A stretch of 25,476 nucleotides of DNA from positions 1 through 25,476 of IMG/VR virus record IMGVR_UViG_3300025530_000048. One strand, given 5' to 3'. Shown here piece by piece: positions 481-9,735 of this stretch. The stretch's first letter is position 1. The number at the start of each line of letters is the position of its first letter. The stretch is from a virus. Lineage: Duplodnaviria > Caudoviricetes. The notes under the pieces are model-generated. The model worked only from the letters and a program-made list of their open reading frames with translations. It was not told the origin of the DNA and did no database searches. The translations under genes and the position numbers were made by a program.

Positions 481-1293
481 TCACAAATACTGCTCTTGCA
501 AAATGACTTGCATTGTACAACTAAGCCCCACGCCAGTTATCGACATCTCATTGTCTCCCTGGTATAACTCGATAAAATCACCATCAAAGTTTGGTAGTCC
601 ATTGTCACCATCAGCAGTAACCGTCATGTGTTGGCCATCGATCACCCATAACTTGCCTGCTAGATCACTGATCCTAAACGACTTACCATTTGCGCTTACG
701 GATACGTTTTTTCCTACGCCGGAAAGTATAATTTTGGGGCGCACAGATAGGCTTCCGCTGCCGACCGTAACAGTGTGTGTAGTGTTGCCTGTTACGTCTA
801 TCACTTCGCCCCCGGTATATCCCATTGGATAATCAGCCTCAAACGTGATTATCTCTGATCCCCAAGTAACCTCATCATTGGTAACCTCGGAGTAAGCAAA
901 CGGATCAGCAGCTATTAAGGGCAGCGAAAACAACCCCGTGCCCATGATCCGTTGGATATCAAACGCCCCATAATACCGAACGTTGAAATACTGGTTGGGA
1001 CGTTCAGCAACTTTAAGTCGCATCAACCTAGGCCGGCCGTGTCGATCGACAAGATGCGCTGCAATACCCTGTACTACGCGTTGCAGCTCTTTATAATTGC
1101 GAGTAATAACTGCACAATCATAAACAAAAAGGCGCGAGTTGAGATCTGCGCCGAAGTCGTATATACCATGTCTTCCTGCTATTGATAGTGTGCGATCAAC
1201 CGTACTAGGCAAGCCGGGGCGCTTGCTAGTCCCGCGGACGATAAAGCCTAGATCGACATTCGACTTATCATCTAACCAAATTTGCGGTTTCAC
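481..1293 (-). CDS. Distal tail protein (Dit, Sipho_tail family)
   Basis: 270 aa directly after TMP; 'SIAGRHGIYDFG', 'LPLIAADPFAYS' and 'FIELYQGDNEMSI' are typical Dit motifs. Confidence 0.85.
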   Translation of the reverse strand: MKPQIWLDDKSNVDLGFIVRGTSKRPGLPSTVDRTLSIAGRHGIYDFGADLNSRLFVYDCAVITRNYKELQRVVQGIAAHLVDRHGRPRLMRLKVAERPNQYFNVRYYGAFDIQRIMGTGLFSLPLIAADPFAYSEVTNDEVTWGSEIITFEADYPMGYTGGEVIDVTGNTTHTVTVGSGSLSVRPKIILSGVGKNVSVSANGKSFRISDLAGKLWVIDGQHMTVTADGDNGLPNFDGDFIELYQGDNEMSITGVGLSCTMQVILQEQYL

Positions 1294-4200
1294 AGAGCAC
1301 CCCTCCTTGCTTGTTCTGCCATGTTCCAGATTTCTCTTGCCAGCAGCTCAATGTCATGATCATTTCGGACGATGATATGAGCGCCAGAAAACAGCCCTTC
1401 AAAGTTGATCGTGCTTGTAGTCGGTACCGCTGCAACTGTCGCTCCTGGAGTAACTGCACCAACTTGGATATTGGATGCTGCAACATTGAGCTGTGCAACC
1501 TGTCTCCTCACATCCCCAATGCTGTCTTGGATACCAAGCGCCAATCCCTCGCCGATGTTTTCGCCGTACTCTCTCATCAACCTGGACGGAGATGCGATAC
1601 CAAAAAACTGCTTGATGCTGTCTCCTATCCCCTGGGCAATGCTTTTGGCTTTTTCCCAAACCTTATTTGCCATGCTGCCGATACCATCAACTAAACCCTG
1701 CATCATGTCTTTACCAACTTGGGCAAGGTTGAGATTTTTGAAAAAGTCTATGACTTTATTCCAGATGTTTTTCACCCAGTCGTAGGCCCTATTCATCCCA
1801 TTTCTAACAGCATCAACAACACCGTTGACTCGATCGCTAACCCAGTTCTTCACGCTGTTCCATGCGTTCTTTGTCCATTCAACGATGTTATTCCAAACAG
1901 TTCTGATATCATTTCCGAGCTTTTGCCAGCGATTGAGGACCTCGCCCGTCTCCCAGTTGACAGCATTGATATGCTCATTGGCCCGCTTCTTCGCTTCGTC
2001 TACAACACGTTTGTGCATTTCCTCGGCTCGTTTAATCGTCTCATCTCGTTGCCTTTGAGCTTCCGCGATGAGCTTGTCGGCTTGCTCAGCTGAAATAGTA
2101 CCAAGCTCATCACGCTGGCGGATGATATTGCGGAGCACGTCATTATACTGCTCCTCTGCCGCGCGAATCGTTTCGTCGCGTTGTTTTATGCTGTTTTGTA
2201 CTACCTCAGCCGCTTGCCTAGCTGTCAGGTCATTTGCATTTTCCAGCATCCGTTCCAAGATGATTCTTTGCTCGATCTCATTCTCCGACAGCATCTCAAT
2301 ACCAGCCTGGAGCATCTCCTGCTGGATGCGATTGATCTCAGCCGCTTCTTCCTGCGTCAACCCTCTTTTTTCTTCGGACGCCCGGCGCAGGATCTCCTCG
2401 ATGTGCGCCTGCCCTTCTTCTACTGCAAGTCTCTGATTTTCCTGTGCCTGCTGCACGCTGGCCAGAATCTCCGCCTGTTCCTCTTCGGTCAGACCTTGAG
2501 CGTTTGCGAAAAACTCCTGCATGGATGCGAGTTCTTCTGCGTGCTTGGTCTCCATCGACGCAAGGATTTGGTCGCCCATGCTGTTAAATGTGCCAACGAT
2601 GTTGTCGGCCATCTCCTGCGTGACGGCTTGGCCGCTCCAGGCAAGTTGATTGAGTGCGACAGTTGCTTGGTCATTCAAGTCCATAAAGGCGCCTACAGCT
2701 TCCTGCGTCGCCTTAGACACCTCATCGCTAAACCGTTCGACCGCAGGTATGGCTTCTTCGGACATGTGTTTGTGGAGTGCAATACCACCCGCCACAAGAG
2801 CAGATATGCCCGCGATGATCAGGCCTATGGGTCCCATCGCAAACTTAATGGCTGTTCCTAGTGCTCCCACTGCGACAGATACACCTTCTATCGCGGGCAC
2901 CACTTTAATAACAAGAGGTAAGAGCTTTCCAATCCCGGATGTCAACGTGCCAAGCACCATTAACAATGGGCCTATCGCTGCAGCTATACCTGCTATGGCT
3001 ACGATCGTTGTCTGAGTTTCTGTGCTCAGGTTTGCAAACCAGGTAACGATCGGCTTGACTGCCTCAACCAGCGACACCAACACCGGCACAAGAATATTAC
3101 CGATCTCTATAGCGAGGTCGGCAAGCTGGTTTTTAGCCATTGCGAGTTTTGATTCAGTTGTCGCATACCGCTGTGCGACCTCATTTTGGAGGGCGGAGTT
3201 TTCCTTCCATGCTTCCGTAGATGTTGCAATGGCGTCCCGTAACACATCGCTTGCCCCGGCCAAGCGCAGGAGTGTGTCGGATTCGCGGATTCCGCTGATG
3301 CCCAAGTCATTAAGGATAAGCGTCAGGTTTTCGCCAGCTGCACTCGACGCCGCCAATCCATCGACAAAGGCTTGCAACGCAACTGCAGGATCTGCGCTAA
3401 ACGCAGCGGCAAACTCCTCAGCCGACATCCGAGCAACCGCGGCAAATTTTTCGAGGTCTTCGCCCGCCAGAGATACAGCCGTCTGCATCTTTTTAAGCGT
3501 CGTGCTCATTGCAGTACCGCCGGCTTCCGCCTCAATGCCAACCGATGACATGGCGGCGGCGAGAGCCATGATCTGCGCCTCTGTCATGCCGATCTGCGCA
3601 CCCTGGCCGGCGAGACGCAGTCCCATCGCCACGATCTCCGCCTCGGTTGTCGCCAGCGAGTTGCCCAGAGCTACCACAGACGATCCAAGACGGTCAAAAT
3701 CGTTTTGCGACATGCCTACAATGTTCGCAAACCGAGCAAACTGTGTGGCGCCCTCCTCGGCTGTAAGGTTGGTTGCTTCGCCGAGTCCGATCATGGTCTC
3801 GGTAAACTTCAGGATGTTCTCTGTCTGGATACCGAGCTGCCCCGCCGCCTCTGCGACAGCCGCGATATCAGTTGCCGACGCCGGCATGCGCTTCGACATG
3901 TCGCGAATTCCTTGCTCCAGCTGAGCAAATTCTTCTTCCGTAGCATCGACCGTCTTGCGGACGCCAGCAAACGCGGACTCAAAATCAATAGCCGCTTTAG
4001 TAGCAGCAACCCCGATCCCGGCGATAGGAGCCGTTACGCCTATTGTTAACTTCTTACCTACATCGGTGATTTTTTCGCCGGCTTTTTTCATCTTCTCGCC
4101 AGCTTCTTCGAGCCTCTTGCCAAGCGACTGGATTTCAGGGCTTGTGCTCTTAAGTTGCTTCTCCAGCCTCTTCAACTCTTGCTCAGTCTTGGCTACCTCA

Positions 4201-4502
4201 CGCTGGAAAGCCCGATACTGCCCTTCGCTGATCTCCCCGCGCTGGAATTGCTCATTTACCTGCTCCTGTACTAGTCGCAGTCGATTCAGCTTTTCTTGTG
4301 TATTTTCAACCGCATCACTCAGTAGCTTTTGTTTCTGTGCTAACAACTCCGTATTAGTCGGATCAAACTTGAGTAATCGCTCAACCTGTCTGAGTTCGCT
4401 TTGGATATCTCTCGCGTGTTTATTGACGTCGCTCAGTGCCTTGGCTAAACCCGTTGTGTCAGATCCAATGACAACGTTAATCCCGCGTATGGTTTGGGCC
4501 AA
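1290..4502 (-). CDS. Tape measure protein (TP901-type core)
   Basis: ~1070 aa, Ala-rich and helical; 'AAIDFESAFAGVRKT' core, Trp-periodic C-terminal region, 'FGIASPSRLM' end motif. Start placed at TTG 4502 (MAQTIRGINVVIG), 6 nt after AAAGGCAGGTG; the ORF track uses GTG 4511, which lies inside that RBS. Confidence 0.95.
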   Translation of the reverse strand: MAQTIRGINVVIGSDTTGLAKALSDVNKHARDIQSELRQVERLLKFDPTNTELLAQKQKLLSDAVENTQEKLNRLRLVQEQVNEQFQRGEISEGQYRAFQREVAKTEQELKRLEKQLKSTSPEIQSLGKRLEEAGEKMKKAGEKITDVGKKLTIGVTAPIAGIGVAATKAAIDFESAFAGVRKTVDATEEEFAQLEQGIRDMSKRMPASATDIAAVAEAAGQLGIQTENILKFTETMIGLGEATNLTAEEGATQFARFANIVGMSQNDFDRLGSSVVALGNSLATTEAEIVAMGLRLAGQGAQIGMTEAQIMALAAAMSSVGIEAEAGGTAMSTTLKKMQTAVSLAGEDLEKFAAVARMSAEEFAAAFSADPAVALQAFVDGLAASSAAGENLTLILNDLGISGIRESDTLLRLAGASDVLRDAIATSTEAWKENSALQNEVAQRYATTESKLAMAKNQLADLAIEIGNILVPVLVSLVEAVKPIVTWFANLSTETQTTIVAIAGIAAAIGPLLMVLGTLTSGIGKLLPLVIKVVPAIEGVSVAVGALGTAIKFAMGPIGLIIAGISALVAGGIALHKHMSEEAIPAVERFSDEVSKATQEAVGAFMDLNDQATVALNQLAWSGQAVTQEMADNIVGTFNSMGDQILASMETKHAEELASMQEFFANAQGLTEEEQAEILASVQQAQENQRLAVEEGQAHIEEILRRASEEKRGLTQEEAAEINRIQQEMLQAGIEMLSENEIEQRIILERMLENANDLTARQAAEVVQNSIKQRDETIRAAEEQYNDVLRNIIRQRDELGTISAEQADKLIAEAQRQRDETIKRAEEMHKRVVDEAKKRANEHINAVNWETGEVLNRWQKLGNDIRTVWNNIVEWTKNAWNSVKNWVSDRVNGVVDAVRNGMNRAYDWVKNIWNKVIDFFKNLNLAQVGKDMMQGLVDGIGSMANKVWEKAKSIAQGIGDSIKQFFGIASPSRLMREYGENIGEGLALGIQDSIGDVRRQVAQLNVAASNIQVGAVTPGATVAAVPTTSTINFEGLFSGAHIIVRNDHDIELLAREIWNMAEQARRGAL

Positions 4503-4507
4503 ACAAA

Positions 4508-4543
4508 ACACCTGCCTTTCTCAATATCGAAAAAGGCAGGCGC
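4508..4543 (-). promoter_or_regulatory. 16-bp stem-loop sequestering the TMP RBS (translational repressor or terminator)
   Basis: mRNA GCGCCUGCCUUUUUCG-AUAU-UGAGAAAGGCAGGUGU pairs fully (4 G-U); the 3' arm contains the RBS and is followed by UUUGUUUG. Confidence 0.8.
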
Positions 4544-4548
4544 TTGGC

Positions 4549-4689
4549 TCACTCTGCTTGGTGGCTCTGGCTCTGTCCTTGGATATTCACCTTCACAATC
4601 TGTTTGCAACGCTGACACTTTATCTCCAAGTCAGCGGACCGAGCAAAAAACAGTGTCTGCCCACAATTAGGACATCGTACTTTCTGCAT
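4549..4689 (-). CDS. com: Mu Com-family zinc-finger protein (46 aa)
   Basis: MQKVRCPNCGQTLFFARSADLEIKCQRCKQIVKV matches the Com pattern RCxxCxxxLF...EIxCxRC; ATG 4689 follows GGAGGGAG. Confidence 0.8.
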   Translation of the reverse strand: MQKVRCPNCGQTLFFARSADLEIKCQRCKQIVKVNIQGQSQSHQAE

Positions 4690-4999
4690 GTTTTTCTCCC
4701 TCCAATTCAGTTCGGAGGCGGAGGCGATCCATCTCATTCTTAATCTCTGCCTTCTTGTTTTCTATCTGCATCATAATTCCTTTTAAGGCTTTCCCTTTTG
4801 CACGCTTCCCTCTACTCAACAATTTTTGTTGCTCTCGTTGTAACTTTCGAATCTTGTCGTTTTGATAATAACCGTAAAACTCGCCGCAATACGGGCAAGT
4901 AAAGCCCACTGCTTCGATGTCATCCCAGACATGGACTTTGCCGATCTCGATTAACACAAACTCTTGCCGGCATCCCTTATTGCATTTAACCCTTTGCAA
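4667..4999 (-). CDS. Hypothetical zinc-ribbon plus basic coiled-coil protein (110 aa)
   Basis: TTG 4999 after GGGGTGAGG; CNKGC...FTCPYCG followed by a K/R/E/Q-rich helix; overlaps the com start. Confidence 0.7.
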   Translation of the reverse strand: MQRVKCNKGCRQEFVLIEIGKVHVWDDIEAVGFTCPYCGEFYGYYQNDKIRKLQREQQKLLSRGKRAKGKALKGIMMQIENKKAEIKNEMDRLRLRTELEGEKHAESTMS

Positions 5000-5003
5000 G
5001 GCC

Positions 5004-5240
5004 TCACCCCCGGAAAAAGGCGTCAATGTCCGCCTGCGTTGCCTCGCGCGGCTCGTCAGGATCATCTCCTAAATACGCATGGGCGATGTCAAAAAAGTCT
5101 TGCAACGTCAAAAGATCAAGCTCATGCAAGGACATTCCGAAACGCATTGCCGCGGATATGATGTTAACGTCTGTACGATCGCAACGATTATCTGCGCTTC
5201 CTTTGGGCCGCCGGTGCCACGGTTTTTGGACTACGAAAAA
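5004..5240 (-). CDS. Tail assembly chaperone C-terminal ('T') frame, probably reached by frameshift
   Basis: Open +1 frame overlapping the chaperone 3' end: DRTDVNIISAAMRFGMSLHELDLLTLQDFFD...REATQADIDAFF; no clear RBS of its own. Confidence 0.65.
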   Translation of the reverse strand, partial: FFVVQKPWHRRPKGSADNRCDRTDVNIISAAMRFGMSLHELDLLTLQDFFDIAHAYLGDDPDEPREATQADIDAFFRG

Positions 5241-5592
5241 AGGCTCTTTGCGCTTCCGCGAAAACCGTTTGCAGCAGTTCCCCATTCAAAAGATCTAGTT
5301 CCTCATTTTCTTGCAACCAAACATCAAACGAAGGAAAATTCCCAGTAGGTCCTGCTGCCGTCCGCGCCAAGGTCCAAATTAAACGTAGCAAGGAAACGGA
5401 ATCAAAGGCCGCCAAATTCATGTCCTCCGGATCTACTCTGCCTATCTTTAGGGCTTCTGCGCTGACCATTGAAGTGATCATTTTAGTCAAATCCCCGAGC
5501 AGATCCCTACCAAACTCCTGCTGATAATAAAGGAGGCTCAGGTTAGATCCCCTGAGCCTTACAGTCTTGTCGCCAACATTGATTTCCTGCAT
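5188..5592 (-). CDS. Tail assembly chaperone (G-like)
   Basis: 134 aa between major tail protein and TMP; 'LLYYQQEFGRDLLGD' is typical; AAGGAGG RBS. Confidence 0.8.
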   Translation of the reverse strand: MQEINVGDKTVRLRGSNLSLLYYQQEFGRDLLGDLTKMITSMVSAEALKIGRVDPEDMNLAAFDSVSLLRLIWTLARTAAGPTGNFPSFDVWLQENEELDLLNGELLQTVFAEAQRAFFRSPKTVAPAAQRKRR

Positions 5593-5603
5593 GGTCTACC
5601 TCC

Positions 5604-6188
5604 TTAGATTTCCGGCGTAAATGTCGGTGTGTAGACCGACGTGAAGAAGGAATTATATACATCCGCGTTAGTGTCATTCAGCTCGATATCACCTTTAACC
5701 ACAATCTTGCCATTGATTTCGATTGGACTGATTGTGATGTTGAGTACGTCTGTAGCAGGCGTGATCGATTCGCTCTGTGTCGTCCGCTCCTTGGCTGGGC
5801 GAGCCGCTACGCAGTCGTAATAGACAAATCGACGGTTGCGTTTGTCGCCTTGCACTTGCCCCAGTAGAGCGAAGTGTTTAGGCATCGCATCTGCAATCTC
5901 GATGATCGTCCCGTTGTCGTCAATCTCCCAGCCCAACATCTCGGCAAGCACTTCGTCCGGTACGTTTGCGAGTTCAAGCTCTCCTGTGTAACCGTTATTG
6001 GCGGTGTAGGAAAAATAGAGTTGGTTGTCAGCGTAGAAGTTAGTAGCTTCCCCCACGGCTGTAGGCGTCCAGCGCACTGCACCAGGAATGCGAATAGGAG
6101 TTTTCCAAGCGGGTTGCTCAGCCGCCTGATCATCAAAAAACGCGATGTGTACATCGCGCAGACCAAACGTCACTTTATTTTGAGACAT
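5604..6188 (-). CDS. Major tail protein (phi13 family)
   Basis: MSQNKVTFGLRDVHIA...FYADN...NNGYTGELE; start moved to ATG 6188 after GGAGG. Confidence 0.92.
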   Translation of the reverse strand: MSQNKVTFGLRDVHIAFFDDQAAEQPAWKTPIRIPGAVRWTPTAVGEATNFYADNQLYFSYTANNGYTGELELANVPDEVLAEMLGWEIDDNGTIIEIADAMPKHFALLGQVQGDKRNRRFVYYDCVAARPAKERTTQSESITPATDVLNITISPIEINGKIVVKGDIELNDTNADVYNSFFTSVYTPTFTPEI

Positions 6189-6192
6189 TCTA

Positions 6193-6513
6193 TCAACCTC
6201 CAATGATTTGGATTTCATAAATGACTTGGTGAAGTTTTTCGGAATCAAGGTAAGCTTCAACCTTGGAATAAGGGATCCCGAGTTCTTTTAATTTTTCCTG
6301 CACCTTACCTTCCGCGACCAGATCCTTTTGAGTTGTGTAAAGCTCGATTTGATAGTTGCCGATCTCGGAGTAGTTAATATTGTCAGCTATCAAGTCATTT
6401 GAGTAAGCAAATGAATATACCAGATAAGGAGGGGATGGCTCTGAGTTAAATTTTGCGTATGCTATCGGATAGCCAATTTCTCTCAGCTCCTGCAAAAGCT
6501 CTGCCAATGTCAA
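6193..6513 (-). CDS. Putative tail terminator/completion protein
   Basis: 106 aa; position before the major tail gene; 'PPYLVY...ADN...YQIELYT' pattern. Confidence 0.75.
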   Translation of the reverse strand: MTLAELLQELREIGYPIAYAKFNSEPSPPYLVYSFAYSNDLIADNINYSEIGNYQIELYTTQKDLVAEGKVQEKLKELGIPYSKVEAYLDSEKLHQVIYEIQIIGG

Positions 6514-9003: not shown

Positions 9004-9735
9004 TTAAAAAATGAACCTTACTCCAGCTTTCACCGGGGTGGGTTCATTCGTTTGATCTTGATTTTTTAGTTGTGCCAACTCATTTTTCAAATTGGCGACT
9101 TGTGCTTTAAGTTGATTGATCTTTTCATCCCTGTCGTCAACGACAGAATCAGCAAAGCCAATATCAACAGCTTTTTGGGCGCTGAACCACGTTTCTTCAT
9201 CGACCATCTGGCGGATCTCTTCGCGGCTCACTTTTGCTTTGGTCATGTAAATATCGATGATGCCTTCCTCCAATTCTTCTAAGACCTGAGCCTCCTTCCG
9301 CATGTCTGTTTTCGATCCCCAGACAATGCTCCAAGCTTCATGGATCATCATCATCGCTCCTAGACCCATGACCAACTCATCCGCCGCCATGGCGATGACA
9401 GACGCCGCAGAACACGCCCACCCATCCACATAGATCGTCACTTTTCCCTTGTGTTGCTTTAGGCGGTTATAGATCGCGATCCCATCAAAAGCATCTCCTC
9501 CCGGGCTGTTTAGTCGGATCACGATGTCTCCCTTAGCCTCTTTTAGTGCCTGATCTATGTCAGATGCTGAAATGGACTCCTCGAACCAAGAGTCGCCAAT
9601 CACTCCGTAGATCGTGATCTCGGTCGTGTTGGTCTCCTCGTTGTATTTTGCTTCAAACTTCCTCTCGATCTTCTCTAGTTGGTCAACATAGGATTGATTC
9701 TTGAAGGATTTTAAAAATTCTCGGACTCTAGTCAT
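9004..9735 (-). CDS. ClpP-like head maturation protease
   Basis: 'RLNSPGGDAFDGIAIYN', 'DGWACSAASVIAMA', 'MMMIH', 'ETWFSAQKAVDIGFAD'; start ATG 9735 preferred over GTG 9747. Confidence 0.93.
   Translation of the reverse strand: MTRVREFLKSFKNQSYVDQLEKIERKFEAKYNEETNTTEITIYGVIGDSWFEESISASDIDQALKEAKGDIVIRLNSPGGDAFDGIAIYNRLKQHKGKVTIYVDGWACSAASVIAMAADELVMGLGAMMMIHEAWSIVWGSKTDMRKEAQVLEELEEGIIDIYMTKAKVSREEIRQMVDEETWFSAQKAVDIGFADSVVDDRDEKINQLKAQVANLKNELAQLKNQDQTNEPTPVKAGVRFIF

Follow-up and report, generated by a model that had tools for sequence, protein, structure and literature searches.

The locus and its gene order

The window (the whole stretch of 25,476 nt that was analyzed) is a single contig holding the late region of an HK97-type siphophage. 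Its minus strand carries, in order, replication genes, terminase, portal, Clp protease, capsid, connectors, major tail protein, two chaperone-like open reading frames (ORFs), an accessory ORF, a com-like gene, the tape measure protein (TMP) gene, and Dit. A Firmicutes host is suggested because the closest com relatives in named genomes belong to Bacillota, for example, Alkalibaculum, Paenibacillus, and Clostridium. A 9,765-nt contig from an RNA library covers positions 3930–6300 with zero differences and, being a contig, cannot show transcription, ends, or levels. The features around the com-like gene are as follows, with SD standing for Shine–Dalgarno sequence and ON and OFF for the predicted SD-free and SD-sequestering folds.

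5004–5592, minus strand: pair of chaperone ORFs, likely for tail assembly (PHROG 709 and 3033)
4667–5065, minus strand: accessory ORF upstream of com (PHROG 1315, a family that assigns no function)
4549–4689, minus strand: com-like gene, 46 aa, CCCC zinc ribbon (CxxC-x15-CxxC)
4570–4580, minus strand: 5' strand of the outer stem P0, with bulged A4576 and A4572; holds GAGCC 4573–4569 (from the window's minimum free energy [MFE] fold of 4585–4526 and family covariation)
4546–4567, minus strand: inner hairpin P1/P2, GAGCC 4567–4563 paired with GAGCC 4550–4546, bulged A4566 and A4549, short inner stem
4533–4541, minus strand: switch strand, pairing with 4580–4570 (ON) or with the SD arm (OFF)
4508–4543, minus strand: OFF hairpin, predicted to hide the TMP SD; 16 bp including G-U, 18 with flanks (RNAfold), loop 4527–4524
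4509–4521, minus strand: SD-like region of the TMP gene, AGAAAGG-C-AGGUG, in the 3' arm of the OFF hairpin, 6 nt before the TTG
1290–4502, minus strand: TMP gene, TTG start, 1070 aa (PF10145, E = 1.6e-19); start agrees with homologues
481–1293, minus strand: Dit gene, after TMP

The ORF pair at 5004–5592 likely encodes tail assembly chaperones, given its position between the major tail protein and TMP. A slippery-looking stretch of six T then C (5241–5235, minus strand) lies near the end of the 134-aa chaperone-like ORF, and the ORF at 5285–5004 overlaps that ORF in the +1/−2 frame, not the usual −1. The accessory ORF has cysteine pairs of its own and, in this family, separates the chaperones from TMP whether com is present or not (L002, L012, L063, L070); in com-less relatives (e.g., L002, L012, L019, L022) it adjoins TMP directly.

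A Com-like zinc finger protein

The com-like gene has an SD-like motif of its own upstream (GGAG), and its start overlaps the 3' end of the upstream ORF. An earlier note on this DNA had read the ORF (4689–4549, minus strand) as a 46-aa Com-type zinc finger and proposed a search against the Mu-like Com family. The identification holds, if narrowly by Pfam, where PF10122 gives 23.0 bits against a cut-off of 22.9 (a margin of only 0.1 bit). PHROG 6417, "translational regulator," is matched at E = 1.7e-10, PHROG 13819 is matched as well, and BLASTP aligns the protein with Mu Com at 18 of 37 identical residues (49% over 37 aa). Twelve of 15 aligned relatives match PF10122 at E ≤ 0.01 (best 9.9e-9), and Atlas features of the protein point to Com clusters (0.93). 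A homologue search with the 46-aa sequence returned 4 proteins only. It matched no NCBIfam family above cut-off, and a PDB search gave generic zinc ribbons only and no solved Com chain.

The Com relatives are 36–51 aa long, with C-terminal tails in three frames, and tail length is described as variable in the Com family (PMC6240691). The C-terminal disordered segment of the 62-aa Mu Com is largely absent from the 46-aa protein. It has been suggested that this tail is possibly needed for melting (PMC6483171); most of it is missing in the window Com. In two related contigs (L060 and L108), the first com cysteine pair is one base out of frame next to an intact RNA cassette, reflecting either a sequencing error or a pseudogene.

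A hairpin over the TMP Shine–Dalgarno sequence

The earlier note had also placed a 16-bp hairpin at 4543–4508 with the TMP ribosome-binding site in its 3' arm, and we find it at these positions. Its energy is −27.5 kcal/mol (z = −7.5), and 0 of 200 shuffles were equally stable. We take 4509–4521 to be the SD of TMP from its complementarity to the 16S 3' end. The TTG at 4502–4500 aligns with the first codon of TMP homologues and lies outside the stem. The start had been called weak, and this is right for the TTG of the window but does not hold as a rule: by a rough heuristic, ATG is used in 24 of 47 cassettes. TMP genes that lack com likewise start at GTG, TTG, ATA, or ATC.

Among the 47 aligned cassettes, the core of the OFF hairpin is in the MFE fold of 44 at full length; this core was itself required by the collection filter of the set. 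Stems of at least 11 bp cover the SD in 31/47 cassettes versus 1/56 com-less TMP loci, while the energies needed to open the SD overlap (median 10.1 kcal/mol for cassettes vs. 7.1 kcal/mol for 55 com-less controls). Taken alone, the OFF hairpin covaries weakly, with one doubly changed pair and a score reached by 53 of 500 shuffles in a MAFFT alignment that has four misaligned rows. At one locus, L533, com and the site are both present, but the SD hairpin is weak (−6.5 kcal/mol on its own).

GAGCC motifs and the SD-free fold

Three GAGCC motifs had been described at the 3' end of com. They start at 4573, 4567, and 4550, as described, and form the sole cluster among the 49 GAGCC sites of the window; under random placement, such a triple arose anywhere in 0.9% of 20,000 trials. 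They are not free repeats. RNAalifold, applied to the 47 cassettes and unprompted, returned a long SD-free hairpin with bulged adenines upstream of the SD, in which the motifs are paired. In the family fold, P0 has two bulged adenines, P1 (GAGCC:GAGCC) has two, and P2 has one. What is conserved is a paired structure containing four half-sites; the base of the SD hairpin (4543–4539) is the fourth of them. Most likely, the GAGCC motifs do not work in single-stranded form but as part of a bulged duplex in competition with the SD hairpin.

The 3' strand of P0 doubles as the 5' arm of the SD hairpin, making the two predicted folds mutually exclusive. P1/P2, which encloses the com stop (TGA, 4551–4549), is compatible with both. 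Window RNA cut before the SD arm adopts exactly the ON fold, and P0 is present in 45 of the 47 folds of cassettes cut before that arm. The window energies are −36.0 kcal/mol for the SD-hairpin fold versus −13.6 kcal/mol for the SD-free fold.

Covariation, which the earlier note had wanted checked for the SD hairpin, is seen in the ON fold. Across the 47 cassettes, 97.5% of cells are paired in this fold, and 7 of 17 pairs are doubly changed, with 63 such cells. This covariation and pairing was reached by 0 of 500 shuffles (slid controls, 26–44%); the cassettes are non-redundant yet related, so these shuffle counts are not p-values. The 5' strands of the ON fold were not part of the main collection pattern. 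The bulge columns hold A in 45–47 of 47 cassettes. In a set of 59 (the 47 plus 12 outside the alignment), the switch strand pairs with both of its partners in 53–58 cassettes, depending on the position. Concerted three-way changes are seen, of the types C-G-Y/U-A-U/A-U-A and G-C-G/A-U-A (e.g., in LPCPA58, L184–L186, and L192).

The first half-site lies within the com coding sequence in 46/47 cassettes, so that the motif overlaps the com 3' end. The com stop falls at varying distances, 8–42 nt, ahead of the switch strand, and the motif occurs in each of the three com frames; selection therefore acts at the level of RNA or DNA and not of the peptide. The conservation of GAGCC, likewise proposed for checking, is accordingly a matter of nucleotides, which are kept in all three frames. 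Rfam 15 gave two matches for window positions 3500–6500, both far below the gathering score, and none at E ≤ 0.5 for 17 loci. With this family comes an RNA element that is defined by covariation and has no counterpart in Rfam.

Recurrence of the cassette

A survey of com next to TMP, also suggested earlier, showed the arrangement to be recurrent. Of 80 loci in the TMP family of the window, 9 have a com-like ORF immediately upstream of TMP (8 found by regular expression and L060 by eye). These 9 include the sequence of the window itself, and the upstream DNA is too short at three of the 80. The com cassette is dispensable at the level of this TMP family. On a tree of the TMP N-terminus, built from 64 of the 80 loci after duplicates and short-flank rows were dropped, the com label changes 6 times, and at least 4 of these changes are forced by well-supported branches. 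One com-less locus (L034), which shares a supported clade with five com-positive loci, retains the SD arm only.

The cassette is also found before several unrelated TMP families. A nucleotide pattern found both com and a TMP-like ORF at 19 of 19 matches (two with little downstream DNA), and TMP PHROGs of several families were matched by 28 of 28 picked com-linked downstream ORFs. A looser pattern of the RNA only gave 120 matches, 97 with the zinc finger upstream; the com-less matches that were seen are mostly chance occurrences inside other genes (the two tested were terminase and polymerase). In metagenomes, a pattern of the inner hairpin plus switch core only, with the SD hairpin left out, gave 71 matches. 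Here, com was present in 64 of the 69 with enough flank, the SD hairpin was in the MFE fold of 66/68, P0 was found in 70/70, and TMP PHROGs were matched by 33 of 36 downstream ORFs tested. A second viral pattern (the CCTAY variant) was set aside as mostly chance, with CxxC..CxxC upstream in 13 of 120 matches, 12 of them true cassettes. In two cultured phages, Anaerostipes AC844P2 and Clostridium LPCPA58, the cassette precedes the long tail ORF and com is unannotated; com is thus a gene missed in the annotations of cultured phages. The Anaerostipes phage version contains CC-GAU-GAG.

A covariance model run against 100 chosen sources gave 28 matches at E < 1e-4, all of them com-TMP cassettes (one ends at a contig edge). 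The model had no match at E < 0.05 at com loci preceding Mom, methyltransferases, terminase, or head genes, nor at Mu, at chance pattern matches, or at 9 com-less TMP loci. Within the window, 4589–4498 alone scores (65.4 bits). A search of the window for further copies that might serve as targets in trans gave only a weak match at 9057–8976 (E = 0.31), a terminator-like hairpin, which we rejected. The long terminator-like hairpin with its U-run (9049–9011, minus strand) sits where the Clp protease gene ends, shortly ahead of the capsid SD, and has one C-A mismatch in a CC/GAG context.

A proposed switch and its alternatives

We start from what the sequence and the computations show, namely the com gene, two mutually exclusive predicted folds that are conserved and covary, and the association with TMP; that Com binds, and that binding activates, we infer. 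On this basis, Com-dependent translational activation of TMP, like that of Mu mom, is the probable reading, and the cassette would be a protein-dependent ON-switch. Since only one of P0 and the SD stem can form at a time and the latter is the more stable, the default would be OFF, with the SD hairpin outcompeting the SD-free fold, and Com binding would turn the switch ON. Com would load on the GAG/CC bulged-A elements of P1/P2, its predicted loading site, at the 3' end of its own message. Further copies of Com would then stabilize P0 and draw the shared strand off the SD stem. With the SD freed, TMP would be translated only after enough Com had accumulated from the late transcript, and tail initiation would be delayed or dosed. 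The stable hairpin probably also severs the direct translational coupling from chaperone to TMP that is seen in com-less relatives. The earlier note had drawn a Com/mom-like architecture before TMP; the adjacency, the motif conservation, and the covariation bear this out, except that the GAGCC motifs most likely do not serve as free repeats. Against activation by Com count the variant cassette with no com beside it, the majority of close TMP relatives without any cassette, the weak SD hairpin of L533, the weak covariation of the OFF hairpin taken alone, the overlapping SD opening energies, the missing literal Mu motifs, and the shortened C-terminal tail.

Other explanations can be weighed against the same data. 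Ribosomes translating or terminating on com or the upstream gene could operate the switch in cis, leaving Com secondary or only autoregulatory. The overlap of the motif with the com 3' end in 46/47 cassettes would fit, as would a com-less locus (L498) that keeps the RNA directly behind a chaperone stop. However, the distance between the com stop and the switch strand can take any value between 8 and 42 nt, in any frame, the passage of ribosomes would disrupt P0 and so favor OFF, and recognition by a protein is indicated by the four cysteines and by the invariance of the bulged adenines. We regard this as unlikely. Com could also act negatively, with a stabilized P0 and the U-run of AT-rich members causing termination before TMP, Dit, and the downstream tail genes and thereby capping their dose. 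P0 would form co-transcriptionally, ahead of the SD arm, at least 6 U occur within 8 nt after the switch core in 26/47 cassettes, and few copies of TMP are needed per virion, a low requirement that a capped dose would suit. Yet 8 of the 47 cassettes have at most 3 U there, the window has 5, and the U count falls with the GC content of the locus (rho = −0.46). In addition, those Us pair in the SD hairpin, P0 is long and bulged, the conserved SD pairing would be left unexplained, and a terminator scan calls none here. Termination promoted by Com at P0 is possible in AT-rich members only, and as a general account it is quite unlikely.

The earlier note had further proposed that the SD hairpin might serve as an attenuator. 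In that case, the hairpin and its U-run would form an intrinsic terminator that Com relieves by antitermination. The window does have UUUGUUU after the 16-bp stem, and mutually exclusive folds make the geometry possible, but a U-tail (at least 5 U of 8) follows the stem in 1/59 cassettes and the terminator scan of the window makes no call at the SD hairpin. The attenuator proposal does not stand up to these counts, and we consider antitermination very unlikely. Finally, the cassette could be an inserted element, selfish or vestigial, with an RNA fold that leaves TMP output unaffected. Its patchy distribution (9/80 loci, at least 4 forced gains or losses on the tree) is what such an insert might show; the covariation, the three-way pairing, and the exclusive link to TMP across unrelated TMP families argue against it and make this reading highly improbable.

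Returning to Com-dependent activation, a broader version can be offered tentatively, as less likely than not. In Firmicutes siphophages, the cassette would be a portable cooperative switch with four to five bulged-A Com sites per hairpin, working as a threshold timer on tail initiation. It would also be one member of a wider, undescribed Com gating of virion assembly genes (TMP as well as terminase, scaffold, protease, and tail tube). Control of tail assembly is usually explained by chaperone frameshifting and weak initiation; if activation by Com is true, a post-transcriptional checkpoint is added. In many Firmicutes phages from gut, digester, and soil, the same family would then control a structural gene that is essential. 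The cassettes are natural protein–RNA pairs for reading Com specificity and, again if the activation is true, would supply a self-contained translational switch of ~190 nt for Gram-positive synthetic biology.

Comparison with known Com systems

Com is known from one system, Mu mom, in which it restrains a host-toxic enzyme. Mu Com recognizes CC(N)2-3GAG in a hairpin loop with the GA accessible, and its site partly overlaps the translation-inhibition structure (PMC6483171). The window shares with Mu the CCCC zinc finger, a target located in the 3' portion of the com message itself, half-sites of the GAG and CC kind, and a Com-side hairpin that overlaps an inhibitory stem over the initiation region of the next gene (in silico for the window). 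Unlike in Mu, the next gene is TMP and not Mom or another DNA-modification enzyme, and TMP starts 47 nt after the com stop, whereas Mu mom overlaps com by 80 nt. The window element is a long multi-bulge hairpin with GAGCC half-sites in place of a single CC(N)3GAG loop, and it differs further in that the overlap with the inhibitory stem is ~9 nt and the start codon is outside the stem. Com itself is 46 aa here versus 62 in Mu, and the RNA model finds no match in Mu. The window contains neither of the Mu motifs, GAG(N)2CC and CC(N)2-3GAG, in literal form. A bulged A in a GAG strand facing CC may be the Mu CC/GAG element in an internal form. As proposed, the cassette works like Mu com/mom yet fails two of its defining features, the literal motif and the DNA-modification target.

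Homologues of com precede DNA methyltransferase genes in Mu-like prophages (FluMu hin1523, hia5, and B3 ORF48), and these loci resemble the window in having a Com homologue before a gene other than Mom, with predicted Com sites (PMC3299994). Their targets are host-toxic DNA-modifying enzymes, whereas the target in the window is an essential virion protein. The RNA model had zero matches at the com-methyltransferase loci tested. In Pseudomonas, com-like genes lie before llpA bacteriocins, tailocin cargo or lysis genes, and levansucrase (PMC6240691). As in the window, the gene there is a short, often unannotated PF10122 gene that appears as a portable front end; the passages of that study dealing with these genes name no RNA element or virion structural target and leave a wider role for exploration (PMC6240691). 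No report of Com before TMP was found in open-license PMC papers or bioRxiv main texts; subscription papers and supplementary motif tables could hold one.

Exceptions and other com loci

One variant cassette, present at four loci (L498, at 1106–1267 on the minus strand, L510, L537, and L546), keeps both folds with no com adjacent. The motif is abutted by a chaperone-like gene (DUF6673), and in L498 a gene for a 53-aa zinc ribbon of the zf_Tbcl type (PF13451) is found one gene upstream. This zinc-ribbon protein is a possible replacement for Com; it is also possible that Com is supplied in trans.

Homologues of com also lie directly before other virion and packaging genes: terminase (L120 and, by similarity to it, L176), head scaffold (L151, L172), protease/major head (L160), major tail (L115), and tail terminator (L166). 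The TMP-type RNA model is unmatched at all of them (L115, L120, L151, L160, L166, L172, L176), and such loci may use other RNA elements. In L120, a terminator-like hairpin lies between com and terminase.

Clostridial Com-like zinc ribbons occur in apparently non-tail contexts as well (L155, L171, L201, L207, L220, L225, L236), followed by a gap of 100–190 nt and then by unrelated small regulators; L236 has weak matches to the RNA model. At L168 (2090–2200), where the model is unmatched, a divergent zinc ribbon precedes TMP and a strong SD-covering hairpin of different sequence is present, possibly a second type of element.
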